Below, piece after piece: positions 40,534 to 53,533 of a stretch of 53,736 nt of DNA. Source of the DNA: Candidatus Hydrogenedentota bacterium (GTDB taxonomy: Bacteria; Hydrogenedentota; Hydrogenedentia; Hydrogenedentales; SLHB01); NCBI GenBank assembly GCA_029974275.1, contig JARKSN010000280.1, forward strand, positions 1 to 53,736, in the 5' to 3' direction. A program made the translations under genes and the position numbers. The notes beneath the pieces are model-generated. The model saw only the letters and a list, made by a program, of their open reading frames with translations, had not been told where the DNA came from and ran no database searches. How positions within the stretch are numbered: position 1 is the stretch's first letter; every line of letters begins with the position of its first letter.

Positions 40534-40628
40534 AGCCGTTGCCTGTCGTCAAGGTTCTCTTGTTGATCGCACCGCCCGGCGTGCGTATTGTGGCCATGTT
40601 CGCGGGGGCTGAAAGGGCGGGTGTCGTC

Positions 40629-42593
40629 ATGCTGATGCGTTGGCTCTCTGTAGTCTGTCTTCTTGCGGCGGGGATTTCATGTTCCCAAAATGTCGAGACC
40701 GCCCCTCCGCAGTCTTCGTCGCCTGTTTCGCGAACACTGCATCCCCCGCGCGATCTCGAGGGACTGTACACGCTTGCCGATTATCGCGCGCTGAAGAATT
40801 CTTTCATCCTCGGCCTTGAAACGCGCGCGCACATGACGCCCGCGTTAATGCCCGGGCAACGAATCGTGGTGATGGACGCGCAAGGATGCGGCAGCATTCG
40901 GCACATTTGGCAGACGGATAAACGCACACCCTTGCGCTTCGAGTTCTTCGTCGACGGCGAAACGACGCCAAGCATCGCCGGAACGATGCGCGACCTAGCC
41001 CCTGCGGCGGCGATGTGTCAGCAGCCGTTTGTTTCCAACGCGGGCGGAATCATCCCCAAAAAATCCTACAACATCTACCTGCCTATCCCGTTCGAAAAGT
41101 CCATGCGCATCGAAGTCGCGGCCCCCGAGGTCTCGATCGAACAACTCAGCCTGAATTTCCTTCAGATCGAGTACCGCCTCGACGATTCCTCGCTGAACGG
41201 GGTGCGGCTGCGGTACGACGCGAACGGTTTCCGGTATGAAGGGCTGGACAAAGCGGCCCACGCATCGCCCCCCGAGCAAGTGACGGTGCAATCCCGAACG
41301 TTTAGCATGAAACCGGGCCAGCGGGCCGCGATACAAGGCCCCGGCATTATCCGGACGCTCTCCGTCGATGGATTCGACCCGAACGACGTCTTGCGCATTT
41401 ATTTCGATGGCGAGACGACGGCGGCGGTGGATGTGCGTCTCGCGGACCTTTTCGGCCCATTCCATGGGGTCGCGTTCGCGAAAAACGCCTGCAACCTGCC
41501 GATGCCCTTCAAACAAGAAGCCCAGTTCGAAATCGTCTCCAAGAACATGCGTCCGCAGCGCACGGCGCTCGTCAACACGGAGCCGGTTTCCGCATTCGCC
41601 GCGGATTGGGGGTACTTCCACGCGAAAAGTCATGCCGAGAACCGCACGCGCGGTTATGTTCCCTACCCGGTCTTGTTCACCAAGGGGCGCGGGCAATTCG
41701 TCGGCATGGCCTTGTTCAACACCGGCCATGACCACGGCGGAGCGGACTTCATGGTTGTCGACGGCGGCGCGCCGCGACCGGATTTTCTGCACGGAACGAA
41801 CGGCGAGGATTACTTTGGATTCGCATGGTTTGGCGCGGGAAACAACCCCCCGTACTCGGAAGCCGTGAACAACGTGCTGGGTCGCATGCGGCTTCACCTC
41901 GAGAACGTCGTCCCGTTCCGCGAGTCCATCGAAGTTTCCTGGGGGGCCTTGGAGAACCTCGACCTCCGGTCCGTCGCGTACTGGTATCAGGACTCGCCCG
42001 CTGACTTGACGCAAATGGGCGACGCGGCGCTCGGACGCGAGTGGGAGGTGTTTGGGCCGGTGACGGCGCTCACGCCCCCGGGCAAGCCGCTGCCCGACAT
42101 GAGCAGCGCAGACGCCCTGTTTGCCGCGCTTCCATCGGAGGCCGATCTGGACGCGCGAAAGGCCGTCCCGATCGAGCACCGCTATCACGATGTCTACCCC
42201 GGAACGTTCAAGGGCTGGAAAACGCAACGCGCCGTCGCCAACGATCTCAATCTTATGTACATCTACCGGCACGTCCTCGCGCTCAACGAGCGAAGCCACA
42301 TGGGCATATACCCGCGAAGCATGATGGCGCGCACGACCATCAAGAGCGCTACGGAACAACCCGTCACATTTCAGTTGTCGTACGACGACCCGCTCGAAGT
42401 GCGCCTGAACGGGGCCGTCGTCCACACGGACCTGACCGTCCATCCCGGTTTTGTGACGCAGCGATTTTCCGGGACGCTTCGCGCGGGCGACAACGCGCTC
42501 CTGGTTCGCATGCTCGACACCGCGAACTGGAACACCGCGTGGGCCGCACTCAATCTGCGCGTGCTCGATGCGCAAGGGCGCGAATTGCCGTAG
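40629..42593 (+). CDS. DUF2961 (GH172-like) lipoprotein
   Basis: Lipobox-like GISC; two DUF2961-like lobes (GSIRHIW...VDGETTP; GPGIIR...FDGETT); HGTNGEDYFG. Confidence 0.75.
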   Translation: MLMRWLSVVCLLAAGISCSQNVETAPPQSSSPVSRTLHPPRDLEGLYTLADYRALKNSFILGLETRAHMTPALMPGQRIVVMDAQGCGSIRHIWQTDKRTPLRFEFFVDGETTPSIAGTMRDLAPAAAMCQQPFVSNAGGIIPKKSYNIYLPIPFEKSMRIEVAAPEVSIEQLSLNFLQIEYRLDDSSLNGVRLRYDANGFRYEGLDKAAHASPPEQVTVQSRTFSMKPGQRAAIQGPGIIRTLSVDGFDPNDVLRIYFDGETTAAVDVRLADLFGPFHGVAFAKNACNLPMPFKQEAQFEIVSKNMRPQRTALVNTEPVSAFAADWGYFHAKSHAENRTRGYVPYPVLFTKGRGQFVGMALFNTGHDHGGADFMVVDGGAPRPDFLHGTNGEDYFGFAWFGAGNNPPYSEAVNNVLGRMRLHLENVVPFRESIEVSWGALENLDLRSVAYWYQDSPADLTQMGDAALGREWEVFGPVTALTPPGKPLPDMSSADALFAALPSEADLDARKAVPIEHRYHDVYPGTFKGWKTQRAVANDLNLMYIYRHVLALNERSHMGIYPRSMMARTTIKSATEQPVTFQLSYDDPLEVRLNGAVVHTDLTVHPGFVTQRFSGTLRAGDNALLVRMLDTANWNTAWAALNLRVLDAQGRELP

Positions 42594-48802: not shown

Positions 48803-49399
48803 TTACGCAAGCAGATTGAGAAGCTGGCCGAGGGGACGGCTTTCCTGATACGAAATCCGTTGACGGTCCATGGCCGGAGAAACGCGCGCGGCGCCCCCGG
48901 CGTCCGTAGGGGCGCTCCCTTGCGTTCGGGCAAGGGCGATTTCCGCCGCCTGGTTCATGCCGTTGATGAGCGAACGCGCTTGCGCGGCGACGCGTTTTTC
49001 CGCAGTGGCCCGTTCCAGCGACAGATTTGTCTTGCCGGAAACGCCCAAGAGATTCTCGTTCGCCGCGTCCGAATCTTGCGGCGTTGACGGCGCCTCGTCG
49101 GCCTGTTTTTGTTGGGCGGAATCGATCAGCCCGCGGACAAAGCGCAGGTTGGTCCCCATCGTGCGGACGGCCTCGCCCGAAGGCATGACGGTGCCCTCGC
49201 CAAACCCAATCCGCGGAGCGGGCTGCCGCTCACGCCCGAATAGAGCCGCCCCTTCCTCCGTCTGGGACCGGAAGGACCCGGATGTCCCCTCCCGATTTCT
49301 GGGGGATCGGGCAAACGGCGGCGCATACGTCCCCTCATACGGTGCACGCTCGCGCGTCACCGCCAACACAGAAGGCGCTGCTCCGATTTCCAAGCCCAT
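48803..49399 (-). CDS. hypothetical protein
   Basis: Fills the gap between flanking genes; near-consensus promoter upstream. Confidence 0.55.
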   Translation of the reverse strand: MGLEIGAAPSVLAVTRERAPYEGTYAPPFARSPRNREGTSGSFRSQTEEGAALFGRERQPAPRIGFGEGTVMPSGEAVRTMGTNLRFVRGLIDSAQQKQADEAPSTPQDSDAANENLLGVSGKTNLSLERATAEKRVAAQARSLINGMNQAAEIALARTQGSAPTDAGGAARVSPAMDRQRISYQESRPLGQLLNLLA

Positions 49400-49502
49400 C
49401 GCGCCGCCGTCCTTTCGGGCCTTCCCGCACGCGCCGATTCGCCCTTCGCGTGCGGCGTCTCATGTTCCAAAGAAACGCGAAATGCTCACTATTCCCATAT
49501 GA

Positions 49503-49531
49503 ATTATGCCCCGGTCGTCAAATCCTGTCAA
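49503..49531 (-). promoter_or_regulatory. sigma70 promoter
   Basis: TTGACA-17 nt-CATAAT. Confidence 0.65.
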
Positions 49532-49629
49532 GCCTCCTGCTAGGGCTCTACACTCACATTTCGATTCGTCCGAGCTTTCGTGTCCCTTTTGGGGCGCCGA
49601 CTTGCCGTCTCGTTCATCTCTTTGTCCGT

Positions 49630-49655
49630 GTAGCGCCCGGTCTCCGTGCCGGGCG
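49630..49655 (+). repeat. GTAG REP-like hairpin (third copy of the core)
   Basis: GTAG-CGCCCGG-tctccgtg-CCGGGCG. Confidence 0.8.
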
Positions 49656-49709
49656 TGTTCGTCAAGGCAGCACAGTGCATGAGTGCGACACTTGGATTTG
49701 GTCGTTGAC

Positions 49710-49738
49710 TTGACTATTCCCGGGGAGTCGCATACCCT
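49710..49738 (+). promoter_or_regulatory. sigma70 promoter for the radical SAM operon
   Basis: TTGACT-17 nt-TACCCT. Confidence 0.45.
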
Positions 49739-49847
49739 AACGGTGCGAGTCGTCGTGAGGCTGCGGCGCTTGTCGCGGGAGAAGTCGGCGCGCGAGAGGC
49801 TCGTCCCCTGGAGGGGGGGCGGGGCAACATAAAGGGATGATGCAGCA

Positions 49848-51128
49848 GTGACGGCGACGATTACCGGGTCAGCGGGGGAAGTGTTGAAGACCAAGAAGCG
49901 CGTGCTGACGCGGCGGGGCGTGATATGGCTGGGCCAGACGTGCAACCAGCGTTGCTACTTTTGCTATTTCCTCAACAAAATCTCGAACGAGAGCCATCCC
50001 GAGCACGCCTTCATGTCGTTCGACAAGGCGAAACAAATCTGCAAGACGTTGGTTGATTTCTACCATAACAACGCGATCGACATTCAGGGCGGCGAGCCGA
50101 CCATCTACCGCGAGATTCTCGACCTGTGCCAGTATTGCCACGACATCGGCCTGTACCCGACGTTGATCACGAACGGGATCGCGCTGTCGCAGGAGGGCAA
50201 GCTCGAACAGTACCGCGACCACAGGCTGCGCGATTTTTTGGTCAGCCTGCACGGCATCGGGAAAGTGCACGATCAGGTCGTGGGCGCGCCGGGCGCGTAT
50301 GGCTGCATCACCAAGGCCCTCGAAGGCATGGTGCGGCTGGGCATTCCGCGCCGTATCAACTGCACGATGTCGAAACCGGTCGTGCCGTTGATCCCGGAGA
50401 TTGCGCGCAAGTCCATCGAATACGGCGCGCTCGCCGTGAACTACATCGCGTTCAACCCCTTTGAAGACCAGAAGGCGGGCATCCGCACGCACGAGAACGT
50501 GCCGAGGTATTCGGACTTGCGCGGGCCGTTAACCGAAACCCTCGACATGCTCGAAGAAGCGGGCATCGAAGCGAACGTCCGCTACGTGCCGTTGTGCATG
50601 GCCGAACCGCGGCACCGCAAGAATTTCTACAACTTCCAGCAGCTTCCGTATGACACGCATGAATGGGACTATGAAAGCTGGATGTGGACGATGATGTATC
50701 CGCAGCGCATGCGCGACAGCAGCCTGAACGCGACGTATCGCTTGGGGTATGGGGCGAGCGGGTTGTATCGCAGCGATGCGTTCCAGCGGCGCGATGCCTT
50801 CGAGCAAAGTCCCGTGAAGGGCCGCATCAAGTATGGCGTGCAGCACGTGCTGGCGCGCGTCGAATCGGCGGTGCGCGGACGCGATGTATTGTATCGCGAG
50901 GAAGCCAAACTCCGCGCCTCGGTGGACTGCGGCTACCGGTACCACGATGGCTGCAACCGATGCGCACTGAAGAACATCTGCGACGGGTTCCATGGCGACT
51001 ATGCCGATCTCTTCGGCACCGCCGAGGCGAAACCGGCCACCGATCTGCGCCCGATTGACGACCCGCTTTATTTCATCAAAGACCAGGTGAAAGTGGTCGA
51101 GCCGGAAGACAAAGAGTGGGCGATGTAA
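49848..51128 (+). CDS. radical SAM protein with C-terminal auxiliary Cys motif
   Basis: CNQRCYFC, QGGEPT, ITNG, VSLHG, VPLC, CNRCALKNICDG; start 49848 or 49881. Confidence 0.92.
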   Translation: MTATITGSAGEVLKTKKRVLTRRGVIWLGQTCNQRCYFCYFLNKISNESHPEHAFMSFDKAKQICKTLVDFYHNNAIDIQGGEPTIYREILDLCQYCHDIGLYPTLITNGIALSQEGKLEQYRDHRLRDFLVSLHGIGKVHDQVVGAPGAYGCITKALEGMVRLGIPRRINCTMSKPVVPLIPEIARKSIEYGALAVNYIAFNPFEDQKAGIRTHENVPRYSDLRGPLTETLDMLEEAGIEANVRYVPLCMAEPRHRKNFYNFQQLPYDTHEWDYESWMWTMMYPQRMRDSSLNATYRLGYGASGLYRSDAFQRRDAFEQSPVKGRIKYGVQHVLARVESAVRGRDVLYREEAKLRASVDCGYRYHDGCNRCALKNICDGFHGDYADLFGTAEAKPATDLRPIDDPLYFIKDQVKVVEPEDKEWAM

Positions 51129-51178
51129 ATGGGGCGGACGCGCCGAGGAACGCCGGCGATCGCGGCGCGCATGACGCC

Positions 51179-53533
51179 ATGACCCAATCGTATGCCGAAC
51201 AACGCATTCCTCCGTTGCGCGGGTTGATCCCTGTCTTGAATGCGCAAGGCAGGCCCTACGCGATGATCGACCTGAAGCGATGGATCCACCTTGCCAGCGT
51301 TGCGCACAAGATAAAAAAAGCCGATCTACTCGCGCCGACGGCGCAGACCAACGGCTTCGGCGAATTAATCGAATACGCGCGCGCTTTCGATATCCGCGTT
51401 TCACTGCGCACCGATTGTTCGATTCCGCCGGAAAACGCCCGCGCCCTGACCGGCCTGGACCTGCTCGACGTCATGCTATGTCCCGCGTCGGACGACGCGC
51501 CATTTGTCGACGAATGGCTTGCCGCCGCGCATAATGCCGGGTTGCGCGTGCGGCTGCAGTTGCCCGTGGCCGCCATCCCGGACCCTTCCGGCGATGGCTT
51601 TGCGGAACGTCTCCGGAAGGCGGACGTTGCGGCCGTGAACTTCGTCGTGCGCGATCCGTTTCAACCATCAACGCAACGCGGCAAGACCGCCGCGGGGCAT
51701 CTGGCGAAACTTGCGGAAATGGCGCCCGCGCTCGAAAAAAACGGCATCGAGGTCAACGTCATCGGCGCGCCGTTCTGCGCCATCGACAAGGCGCTCTGGC
51801 CGAACGTCGTCAACAGCCGCCAGTTCTTCCTCGATCACCAACACTACCAGCGCGAGAATTACGAGCTCGCCAAGATTCTTTATAAAAAAGGCCCGATTAT
51901 CTGCGGCAAGATCATTTTGGCGTTGTTGCGACGTCATACCGTTCAAGTGGACCTCATCGACGAACGCCTGTTGCCGTGGCTGTTGTGGAGCCCGTGGAAG
52001 AATGCGCGCATGGCGGCGTGGCGAAAACTGACGCGGCACCTCCGGTTCTTCCGTTCGGCGCCGAAGGCCGTCGAGGAAACGGTCGAAGCGCTGGAGCGCG
52101 AGATGCAACGGCTGCGCGAGGCCGAAGCCGAACTCTGCGGCCCTGTGTGTTCGACGTGCTACCTGCGGCGCATCTGCGATCGCCGAACGCCCGAATTTCG
52201 CAAGGCCGCTCCCGGCGTCGCGGTCGCCGCGCAAAAAGGAGAGGACCTTGTCGCGTCGCCGCTGCATTTTTCGGTGCGACAGCATAAATATTTCGACGCC
52301 ATCGATCAGGTCCGCTACACGATGCGCGAGGGCATGATGGCGCTCGCGCACGAGGCCAACCTACTGCTCGTCAATCGTCCCTCGACCCGTTTGCTGACTT
52401 CGGCGGACTATGGCGTCGACAAAACTTACTATGATCCGATGGAAGGCGGCGTGCGCTGGTTCAGCGTCAACAACAGCGAGAAACGCAGCACGAGTTTGGG
52501 GCAGTTTCAGCCGCCGTTCACGCTGTCGTTCATGGTCGCGGGCGGCATCGCCGAGTACGTCGGGTACAGCGTCGGGCGCCACGCGCGGTTGTTGTGTCCG
52601 ATGGAGGCGTTCCGGCACGAGATCACATTGCACGTCGACGCGGACGGCAACCACGTGCTGCTGCGCGATGGCAAGGCCGTGAGGCCGATGGAGTTCGAGG
52701 GCGCGTACTACACGCCGTTGCGCATTGGCGGGCTTGTCGAGCCGCGCATCGCGTTGTGGAACATCGACGGCAACATCGTGACGCAAGCCGTGCGCGTGTG
52801 GGAAGGCGACGGGGCGTCCGCAAAGGATGTGGAGCGCATCAAGTTCTCCTTCGTGACGGTATGCACGCGGTATGCACGGCGGTTGCAGGCCATGCTGCGC
52901 AGCATCGTTCATCAACGTGGCGTCGACCTGTCGCAAATCGAAATCGTCATCGGCTACGTGCCCGGACTCGACGGCACGGACGATTTGCTCGACTCGATTC
53001 ACTGGACGTTCCCCGAGGTGCGGCTGTTGCGGGCTCCGTTCCCGCAGGAACGCACCCATTCGAAAGGCTACATGATCAACGAGGCCTGCGCGATGGCCTC
53101 GGGCGAATGGGTTATCCTGCTCGACGCCGACACGATGCTGCCGCCGCAGTTTCTGGCGTTGGTCGATCAAGCGGGACCGGACACGCATTTCATCGCGACG
53201 GACGGACGCAAACTCCTCGAACGCGAGGTCACGGCGCGCATTCTCCTCGGCGAAATCGACCCGTGGGACCACTGGGACGAACTGCTCCAAACGCCGGGCG
53301 AATATCGCCAACGCGAAGCCAAGGGCATTCCTATCGGTTTTTGCCAAGCCGTGCGCCGGTCATGTTTCGAGAAGGTCAAGTACAACGAGTTCGAACATTT
53401 CGAAACAGCGGACATGGACTTCGCCGTCGATATCCGCCGCGAATTCGGCCTCGAAAAACGCCTCGACGGCGTCATTGCCCTGCACCTCGACCACGGCGGC
53501 AGCCGGTGGTATGGGACATTGAAGCATTTTTGA
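51179..53533 (+). CDS. fusion of a degenerate radical-SAM-like domain, a beta-rich linker domain and a GT2 glycosyltransferase
   Basis: N-terminal half aligns by eye to the upstream rSAM but has no CxxxCxxC; C-terminal FSFVTVC, KGYMINEA, ILLDAD, HLDH GT-A motifs. Confidence 0.8.
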   Translation: MTQSYAEQRIPPLRGLIPVLNAQGRPYAMIDLKRWIHLASVAHKIKKADLLAPTAQTNGFGELIEYARAFDIRVSLRTDCSIPPENARALTGLDLLDVMLCPASDDAPFVDEWLAAAHNAGLRVRLQLPVAAIPDPSGDGFAERLRKADVAAVNFVVRDPFQPSTQRGKTAAGHLAKLAEMAPALEKNGIEVNVIGAPFCAIDKALWPNVVNSRQFFLDHQHYQRENYELAKILYKKGPIICGKIILALLRRHTVQVDLIDERLLPWLLWSPWKNARMAAWRKLTRHLRFFRSAPKAVEETVEALEREMQRLREAEAELCGPVCSTCYLRRICDRRTPEFRKAAPGVAVAAQKGEDLVASPLHFSVRQHKYFDAIDQVRYTMREGMMALAHEANLLLVNRPSTRLLTSADYGVDKTYYDPMEGGVRWFSVNNSEKRSTSLGQFQPPFTLSFMVAGGIAEYVGYSVGRHARLLCPMEAFRHEITLHVDADGNHVLLRDGKAVRPMEFEGAYYTPLRIGGLVEPRIALWNIDGNIVTQAVRVWEGDGASAKDVERIKFSFVTVCTRYARRLQAMLRSIVHQRGVDLSQIEIVIGYVPGLDGTDDLLDSIHWTFPEVRLLRAPFPQERTHSKGYMINEACAMASGEWVILLDADTMLPPQFLALVDQAGPDTHFIATDGRKLLEREVTARILLGEIDPWDHWDELLQTPGEYRQREAKGIPIGFCQAVRRSCFEKVKYNEFEHFETADMDFAVDIRREFGLEKRLDGVIALHLDHGGSRWYGTLKHF

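Follow-up and report, generated by a model that had tools for sequence, protein, structure and literature searches.

The window analysed here is the whole of contig JARKSN010000280.1 (53,736 nucleotides; contig C257 of the 4.38-Mb, 342-contig genome GCA_029974275.1 from a Candidatus Hydrogenedentota bacterium). At its 3′ end, two open reading frames (ORFs) lie on the same strand. ORF1 (49848..51128; coordinates are on the plus strand unless stated otherwise) encodes an intact radical S-adenosylmethionine (rSAM) enzyme, and ORF2 (51179..53533) a three-domain fusion protein of 784 amino acids (aa). The N-terminal ∼380 aa of ORF2 are a degenerate, strongly diverged paralog of the rSAM family of ORF1, and they precede a domain assigned to the family 2 glycosyltransferases (GT2). 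Sequences and structural models together make it probable, in our judgement, that ORF2 is a glycan glycosyltransferase with a non-catalytic rSAM-derived module that has retained an iron–sulphur (Fe–S) site.

The likely start of ORF2 is the ATG at 51179, which agrees with the N-termini of its homologs; the frame is open from a GTG at 51116, and the 785 aa given in an earlier note on this DNA is one codon more. The rSAM-derived domain occupies residues 1–385 (51179..52333) and comprises a (βα)-barrel core and a helical C-terminal part. A single BLASTP comparison of ORF1 with ORF2 returned one high-scoring segment pair of 83 aa (27% identity, E = 1e-4). Using hhalign, 46 fusion homologs (alignment A1) cut to residues 1–385 were compared with 41 homologs of ORF1 (alignment A2; chosen from 120 listed, 58–86% identical to ORF1). 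The two families matched over 335 aligned columns (Prob 99.3, E = 8.8e-21), fusion residues 33–378 being in register with rSAM residues 62–423, whereas control comparisons with the middle and glycosyltransferase domains of the same protein gave Prob 0.2 and 0.1, respectively. A second N-terminal alignment, A3, consists of 50 rows from DNA references; two orthologs with an in-frame stop (L061:1504-2643 and L054:2716-3828) were dropped beforehand from the 51 N-terminal references. In global mode it gave Prob 99.6 and E = 1.5e-23. The collinear region extends over ORF2 residues ∼10–380 and ORF1 residues 62–423, and all five segment pairs that the earlier note had quoted for this collinearity fall in register.

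A hidden Markov model (HMM) of A3, searched against 1.84 billion representative proteins, yielded 219 matches at E ≤ 1e-3. The fusion family accounts for the best ∼75 of these, and 32 of the 34 weaker matches that were scanned carry the rSAM domain PF04055. In the ESM Atlas, 20 of 30 feature matches belong to the ‘radical SAM protein family' set (score 0.91). Moreover, fusion and rSAM proteins share motifs beyond the rSAM core, namely PxC, NxxQ..D.H.., CxxCx5CD and P.xF...Q.K. PF04055 has no match in the domain at E ≤ 1 (Pfam), and no Pfam or NCBIfam model covers ORF2 residues 1–550.

The AlphaFold 2 (AF2) model of residues 1–385 (predicted local distance difference test score, pLDDT, 85.1; predicted template modelling score, pTM, 0.83) displays alternating β/α elements over residues 14–195. 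When this model was submitted to a VIA-align all-against-all comparison, 23 of the 30 top chains were rSAM enzymes (Z 9.1–11.0), a count that includes the TigE, AbmM, 4jy8 and MqnE entries, which we take to be rSAM enzymes. Among them are PqqE (Z 11.0, 226 residues), viperin (Z 11.0), BlsE (Z 10.4), anSME (Z 10.0, 263 residues, spanning model residues 12–376) and MoaA (Z 9.1); the remaining seven chains are de novo TIM designs, dispersins and one aldolase. The N-terminal half is thus predicted to adopt a partial (βα)6 TIM-barrel fold, with detectable homology to bona fide rSAM members, and the rSAM fold anticipated in the earlier note is borne out by the model.

The hallmark motifs of the superfamily are missing from the fusion. 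The cluster motif CX3CX2C is absent from the first 200 aa of every fusion sequence (0/46 in A1, 0/50 in A3) versus 41/41 in the rSAM family, and GGE is found in 0/46 and 0/50 versus 41/41, the position aligned to it reading K-x-D-x-L. In the AF2 model, β1 spans residues 14–18 and α1 residues 29–41. In ORF1, the cluster loop comes after the segment RRGVIWLGQ, and only near residue 62 does the helix begin that pairs with fusion residue 33. The β1–α1 loop of the fusion is therefore ∼20 residues shorter, and the part bearing CX3CX2C is gone. Given this deletion and the loss of both motifs, canonical SAM cleavage is not expected.

Four cysteines have been kept. C200 (in PFC) and C324-x2-C327-x5-C333 (CSTCYLRRICD; 51776..52177) are present in 50/50 fusion sequences and align to C250 (in PLC) and C369-x2-C372-x5-C378 (CNRCALKNICD; 50595..50981) of ORF1, which are conserved in 41/41 homologs; nothing in the fusion corresponds to C97 and C172, two further invariant cysteines of the rSAM family. 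The loss of the catalytic motifs and the retention of the auxiliary cysteines, read by the earlier note from one protein, extend to the homologs compared. By sequence alone, the set typical of an auxiliary cluster (CX2CX5C plus an upstream Cys) is present in both ORF1 and ORF2. One Cys after β6 followed by CX2CX5C, as in twitch/SPASM domains, presumably denotes one fully ligated auxiliary [4Fe–4S] cluster, and by analogy the pseudo-domain probably still binds one such cluster.

Thirteen columns are invariant in the N-terminal domain in A3, including R14, S75, D97, R125, Q215, Y223, D261 and D376; of these, R125 and D97 correspond in the alignment to R169 and D129, which are invariant in the rSAM family. 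Mean pairwise identity is 0.37 in the N-terminal domain, 0.54 in the middle domain and 0.55 in the glycosyltransferase domain, so that the N-terminal part is the faster evolving. The barrel, the family-specific C-terminal region and the four-Cys site are nonetheless held by purifying selection.

The second half of ORF2 contains a middle domain (residues 386–545; 52334..52813) and a GT-A glycosyltransferase domain of the GT2 family (residues 546–784; 52814..53530). Pfam detects only GT2 models in ORF2, at residues 557–734 (PF13641, 37.8 bits, cut-off 27; PF00535, 32.9 bits, cut-off 23.3). The AF2 model of residues 386–784 (pLDDT 91.1, pTM 0.89) consists of one helix, a β-sandwich (strands at model residues 19–157) and a GT-A fold, the β-rich domain followed by GT-A that the earlier note had foreseen. 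VIA-align places the GT-A part close to TarS (Z 20.9, root-mean-square deviation (rmsd) 2.5 Å, 196 residues), K4CP (Z 20.3), WrtF (Z 20.2) and SpsA (Z 19.4). The top Foldseek match of residues 386–784 is GlfT2 (E = 6.2e-12, 431 columns), but with an rmsd of 22.7 Å and a template modelling (TM) score of 0.33; VIA-align superposes on GlfT2 the GT-A part alone (Z 14.3). The DxD motif, DAD at residues 649–651 (53123..53131), would serve metal and nucleoside diphosphate (NDP)-sugar binding. D649 and D651, together with H769, D771 and H772 of a C-terminal H-x-D-H motif, are invariant in 46/46 sequences. Family HMM, DxD and predicted fold identify the C-terminal domain as a GT2 GT-A glycosyltransferase, and the kept DxD and invariant H-x-D-H make it the likely catalyst.

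ORF1 (426 aa, GTG start) is an intact member of the rSAM superfamily. It passes PF04055 (55.9 bits, cut-off 29.5) and carries both the CX3CX2C motif CNQRCYFC (residues 32–39; C32, C36, C39; 49941..49964) and the SAM-binding motif GGEP (residues 81–84; 50088..50099), each found in 41/41 homologs. Nine cysteines are invariant across these sequences (C32, C36, C39, C97, C172, C250, C369, C372 and C378). ORF1 belongs to a twitch/SPASM-like family of which no member has been characterised. Its best NCBIfam match, HxsC (TIGR03977), scores 62.6 bits against a cut-off of 267.9; therefore, ORF1 has no NCBIfam equivalog. The score against TIGR04347 (pseudo-SAM/SPASM), 54.8 bits, does not reach the cut-off of 525 either, and Pfam SPASM (PF13186) has no match in ORF1 or ORF2. 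A profile of the 41 homologs matches in the PDB the cores of PqqE, GDGT-MAS, BlsE, MoaA, SkfB and anSME. The family search returned 1432 matches at E ≤ 1e-3, a count that includes more distant rSAMs. A second, distant rSAM-like gene lies on the same contig (12229-12636, plus strand, within a 425-aa open frame; 24% identity to ORF1 residues 28–169, E = 5.7e-7).

Fusion and rSAM genes belong to glycan loci of the Wzm/Wzt type. GT1/GT4 genes lie directly 3′ of the fusion at loci L004, L006, L009, L011, L014, L078 and L085, and a Wzt-like ATP-binding cassette (ABC) ATPase of 700–930 aa, with or without a GT2 gene, is upstream of it at L006, L009, L010, L014, L085 and L087. Copies of the rSAM gene that are unlinked to the fusion, sometimes as tandem rSAM pairs, adjoin a Wzt-like ATPase as well (L080, L081, L083, L084, L088, L089), with an ABC-2 permease gene beside the ATPase at L081 and L083. 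Within the window no transporter is adjacent, the Wzt-like gene of this genome being on another contig, C321. That gene (G000:C321:2152-4392, minus strand; locus L090) encodes a protein 48% identical to that of L088 and contains one in-frame TGA, for which an assembly error, a pseudogene or recoding are possible explanations. Kinship of the ∼450-aa C-terminal extension of Wzt with the fusion domains or the rSAM was considered and rejected (Prob ≤ 0.2).

Other proteins join members of the same wider family to glycosyltransferases. In P0320 (714 aa), an intact member of ORF1's wider family is fused to an ordinary GT2, whose similarity to the GT2 of ORF2 is generic (23% identity, E = 0.009). In P0308 (1174 aa) and P0342 (899 aa), a GT1-like N-terminus is followed by a degenerate copy of the ORF1 family in which the cluster loop is deleted and PFC and CxxCx5C are kept. 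In the BLASTP alignment of P0308 with ORF1 (E = 1e-11), a gap of 19 residues coincides exactly with this loop. Glycosyltransferase fusions have therefore lost the radical site more than once. Two further rSAM proteins were seen: P0306 (719 aa), an intact wider-family rSAM fused to a class I methyltransferase, and P0310 (714 aa), a same-family rSAM whose core is separated from the CxxCx5C part at the C-terminus by ∼350 inserted aa that by eye resemble an intein with a homing-endonuclease part.

To place the pseudo-domain, a quick tree was computed with IQ-TREE. It drew on 17 of the 50 A3 rows and 11 of the 41 A2 rows, to which were added 18 rows of wider rSAMs (the rSAM part of P0320 among them), two pseudo-GT1 sequences and four further rSAMs. 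The fusion domains form a monophyletic group (SH-aLRT 100) that falls outside the rSAM clade of the phylum (support 99); its stem measures 3.2 substitutions per site. The long stem and this placement indicate that the pseudo-domain is not a recent duplicate of the neighbouring gene. The tree carries long-branch warnings and cannot name the sister group of the fusion domains; their weakly supported grouping with P0308/P0342 (71) may reflect long-branch attraction.

We analysed the distribution of both genes. Fusion homologs form 90 clusters at E ≤ 1e-3, nearly all of ∼750–820 aa with 96–100% query coverage and 40–54% identity, the exception to this identity range being ORF2's own cluster (99%); a few shorter ones (506–679 aa, some labelled partial) cover 65–87% of ORF2. 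Those with a source name come mostly from metagenome-assembled genomes (MAGs) of Hydrogenedentota. A search for the N-terminal domain standing alone, covering candidates that share short exact words with the query, retrieved one 328-aa fragment on a 1.3-kb contig. A total of 135 genomes of the phylum were surveyed for the fusion (E ≤ 1e-20) and for the ORF1 family (E ≤ 1e-30). The fusion is present in 125 of them (82 of the 86 high-quality genomes) and the rSAM in 90. Both occur in 88 genomes, the fusion only in 37, the rSAM only in two (G091, G006) and neither in eight.

The earlier note had proposed an active/pseudo-enzyme heterodimer, in which ORF1 and the pseudo-rSAM domain of ORF2 would hand a radical-modified sugar or acceptor to the glycosyltransferase. 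A comparable system is the trypanosome AdoMetDC/prozyme pair, in which a dead paralog is reported to be the obligate activator of the active enzyme (PMC5201418). As there, a catalytically dead paralog is encoded alongside an active enzyme; unlike there, the dead paralog forms part of a second enzyme, ORF2, and 37 genomes keep it in the absence of the active one. Several observations fit such a pair. The two proteins are paralogous, a common basis for heteromers. Of the 88 genomes that have the two genes, at least 29 carry the rSAM immediately 5′ of the fusion, on the same strand and no more than 410 bp away; this is a lower bound obtained from 150 of the 192 fusion matches. These genomes represent families f1 (G000, G088, G090, G118), f2, f3 (most members), f4, f5, f6 and f11. 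Three of the 15 loci taken from named genome records (L008, L010, L015) likewise have the family rSAM directly 5′ of the fusion. The slot can be filled by an unrelated rSAM of 357 or 403 aa (PF04055, 69.9–72 bits) without CxxCx5C, as in family f8 (L085:6007-7077, L086:9513-10586) and in Candidatus Hydrogenedens terephthalaticus (L014:4756-5964). The existence of the intact rSAM::GT2 protein P0320 and of the degenerate rSAM::GT1-like proteins P0308 and P0342 points the same way, as does the loss of the four Cys in the rSAM-less sub-lineage of genus g30.

Against the heterodimer stands the distribution. The strict co-occurrence expected of an obligate enzyme/pseudo-enzyme pair of the prozyme type was not observed across the 135 genomes: 37 have the fusion without the family rSAM, including nearly all of family f10 (fusion in 14/15, rSAM in 1/15), all of f8 (10/10 versus 0/10) and genus g30 (5/8 versus 0/8). 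Searches with the rSAM family profile in five genomes upheld the absence in three of them: at E ≤ 1e-6 there was no match in G069 (a closed 7.9-Mb chromosome), G066 and G128, all 95–96% complete, whereas G072 and G056 gave weak, core-only matches (1e-14 to 1e-15). The non-orthologous rSAM, a separate long branch of the tree, occurs in G056 and G049 (used as positive controls) and is at 1e-8 absent from G069, G063, G066, G072, G126, G128 and G130, seven genomes in which neither rSAM type is found. In most genomes of the window's own family, f1, fusion and rSAM are on different contigs. Many genomes have two fusion copies versus one rSAM, and the divergence of the N-terminal domain is ancient. 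The earlier note had named fusion homologs without a neighbouring rSAM as an outcome that would refute its model, and such homologs exist: adjacency was counted in 29 genomes, a lower bound, out of 88 that have the two genes, and elsewhere the fusion occurs without the rSAM. A fixed enzyme pair is unlikely. We consider the heterodimer, with its channelling, improbable; it may exist as a lineage-restricted or facultative arrangement where the genes are adjacent, but it cannot be the general function.

Some further observations were made at these loci. Tandem fusion pairs are common (for example, L001:5977-10702, G042:C372, G048:C12 and G106:C41), the copies sharing 43–48% identity with ORF2; in the window's genome there is a single copy, at the contig end. 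In f8 and Candidatus Hydrogenedens terephthalaticus, the non-orthologous rSAM is adjoined by a divergently transcribed rSAM/SPASM gene. Otherwise full-length fusion orthologs in G098:C206, G105:C647 and G092:C19 are interrupted by single in-frame stops (TAG, TAA, TGA), and in G031:C65 the rSAM adjoining the fusion is split in two; these are all MAGs, and sequencing errors are possible. One locus, L077 (G088:C55:34000-48000), had a listed match at 40618-41937 and was dropped after tblastn with the ORF2 domains found nothing anywhere in it.

We return to the reading of ORF2 as a glycan glycosyltransferase with a non-catalytic accessory module. Fusion copies of f8 and f10 that have no ORF1-family rSAM keep the four Cys. 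ORF2 would be a cytoplasmic GT2 enzyme, near-universal in the phylum, acting in an ABC-transporter-dependent (Wzm/Wzt-type) envelope-glycan pathway. Its GT-A domain, preceded by the β-sandwich, would be the catalyst. The rSAM-derived module may bind the acceptor, a glycan or a lipid, or act as a scaffold; the part of the ancestral enzyme that faced the substrate would thereby be put to new use. ORF1, an intact rSAM, would tailor a sugar or glycan within this pathway, as a frequent but dispensable neighbour.

Several points weigh against this proposal. Foldseek searches of the PDB with the N-terminal model rank generic TIM barrels first (best E = 4.9e-6, TM ∼0.35), the sole rSAM listed being HydE at rank 31, and the sequence profile of the domain has no real match in the PDB (best, a Cas4 Fe–S motif, E = 0.21). 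Both the adjacency of rSAM and fusion in at least 29 genomes of at least seven families and the unrelated rSAM occupying the same upstream slot (f8, L014) argue for a link tighter than that of a dispensable neighbour. Moreover, a sub-clade formed by L076:5673-7964 (G128, genus g30) and the second copy at L078:6246-8531 (G077), of 761–763 aa, lacks the four Cys. In these proteins PFC reads WPR and the CxxCx5C segment is deleted, with barrel, β-sandwich and GT-A kept at 43% identity; the Fe–S site is therefore not essential in every member. Only 203 bp of the contig follow ORF2, which limits the view of its downstream surroundings in this genome. Finally, cluster binding, donor sugar and acceptor alike are inferred.

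In a further reading, the rSAM-derived module would be a dedicated docking and activating partner for glycan-tailoring rSAM enzymes, be it ORF1 or the non-orthologous rSAM that took over the slot in f8, through a surface like that of an ancestral homodimer. Radical modification and glycosyl transfer would then take place on one complex, and the P0308, P0342 and P0320 fusions would be other solutions to the same coupling problem. We regard this as quite unlikely.

Alternatively, the N-terminal domain could itself still be an enzyme, its Fe–S cluster or barrel performing non-radical or non-canonical sugar chemistry (dehydration, isomerisation or redox), which would make ORF2 bifunctional. The 13 invariant columns include charged and polar residues lining the barrel or the C-terminal region, and the alignment of R125 and D97 with rSAM invariants is in keeping with this idea. 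However, all four Cys appear to be ligands, which, by comparison with twitch/SPASM clusters, would leave no open iron site; the domain evolves faster than the glycosyltransferase part; and the Cys-less sub-clade deleted the CX2CX5C segment and kept the rest of the protein. An enzymatic N-terminal domain is thus very unlikely. We judge it highly improbable that the retained Fe–S site is a redox or oxygen sensor, or a stability switch, gating glycosyltransferase activity or turnover. The four Cys do persist in 50/50 sequences despite the loss of the catalytic motifs, and in the host lineage the pathway also includes oxygen-sensitive rSAM enzymes; yet barrel and non-cluster residues, needless for a simple switch, are conserved too, and Cys-less variants endure. 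That the N-terminal half is an unrelated TIM-barrel-like domain, resembling rSAMs by chance or composition, as pairwise identities of 16–27% and the Foldseek ranking might suggest, is effectively refuted by both hhalign scores with their negative controls from the same protein, by an HMM search that past the fusion family reaches rSAM proteins (32 of the 34 weaker matches scanned), by the family-specific motifs common to both outside the rSAM core and by the ESM Atlas matches.

The immediate surroundings of the gene pair were also inspected. The ∼1 kb 5′ of ORF1 (48803-49847) contains only overlapping, unconvincing ORFs on both strands. Scans of this gap and the operon gave no Rfam match better than E = 0.13 and, for promoters and terminators, nothing above chance. 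One strong promoter-like site lies in the gap on the minus strand (49531-49503).

Among known systems, ORF2 is related to two kinds of protein at once, the GT2 enzymes with accessory domains and the rSAM-derived proteins without a canonical site. Among the twitch/SPASM rSAM enzymes, PqqE, BlsE, anSME, SkfB and MoaA match the core of ORF1 by sequence (E = 2.7e-10 to 1.2e-7), and the pseudo-domain model aligns with such enzymes at the Z scores given above; in ORF1 and ORF2 alike, the Cys after β6 and the CX2CX5C motif resemble the auxiliary-cluster site of these enzymes. By contrast, the first Cys and CX2CX5C lie ∼120 residues apart, in a stretch that is largely helical, Pfam SPASM is not matched, and the pseudo-domain is devoid of the rSAM cluster site and GGE. 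TIGR04347, compared here by its NCBIfam name ‘pseudo-SAM/SPASM protein', is likewise rSAM-derived without the hallmark motif; unlike it, ORF2 gives no match to that model, and TIGR04347 is not reported as a glycosyltransferase fusion. TarS, TarP, K4CP, SpsA and WrtF, GT2 GT-A enzymes with accessory domains, share with ORF2 the GT-A fold (Z 19–21, rmsd 2.3–2.8 Å) and DxD, but they and GlfT2 are only 11–20% identical in sequence and none has an rSAM-derived domain. GlfT2, which has an N-terminal β-sandwich domain, resembles ORF2 in the β-sandwich ahead of GT-A (∼430 Foldseek columns), whereas the two-domain superposition is poor (rmsd ∼22 Å).

The gene context of ORF2 resembles that of polymer-building GT2 enzymes. 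As in Wzm/Wzt O-polysaccharide pathways, the surroundings of the fusion and the rSAM in related genomes include genes for an ABC-2 permease, for a Wzt-like ATPase extended at its C-terminus, and for GT2, GT1/GT4 and methyltransferase enzymes; the differences are that the Wzt extension is not kin to the fusion domains and that the window has no adjacent transporter. To our knowledge, rSAM enzymes are not part of the textbook Wzm/Wzt pathways. Searches of openly available full texts gave no account of a glycosyltransferase joined to an rSAM-derived domain, or of the rSAM family of ORF1, in line with the earlier note's failure to recognise this architecture among characterised systems.

Pseudo-enzymes derived from rSAM proteins have rarely been described. 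The one in ORF2 is found, joined to a glycosyltransferase and with a likely auxiliary Fe–S site kept, throughout nearly all of a phylum. Conserved synteny, the intact rSAM::GT2 fusion and the independently degenerate rSAM::glycosyltransferase fusions tie an uncharacterised, widespread rSAM family to surface-glycan synthesis of the Wzm/Wzt type. ORF1 and ORF2 thus offer rSAM biochemists a concrete protein pair for the study of radical chemistry on exported glycans and of the role that the non-SAM half of such an enzyme may play alone.

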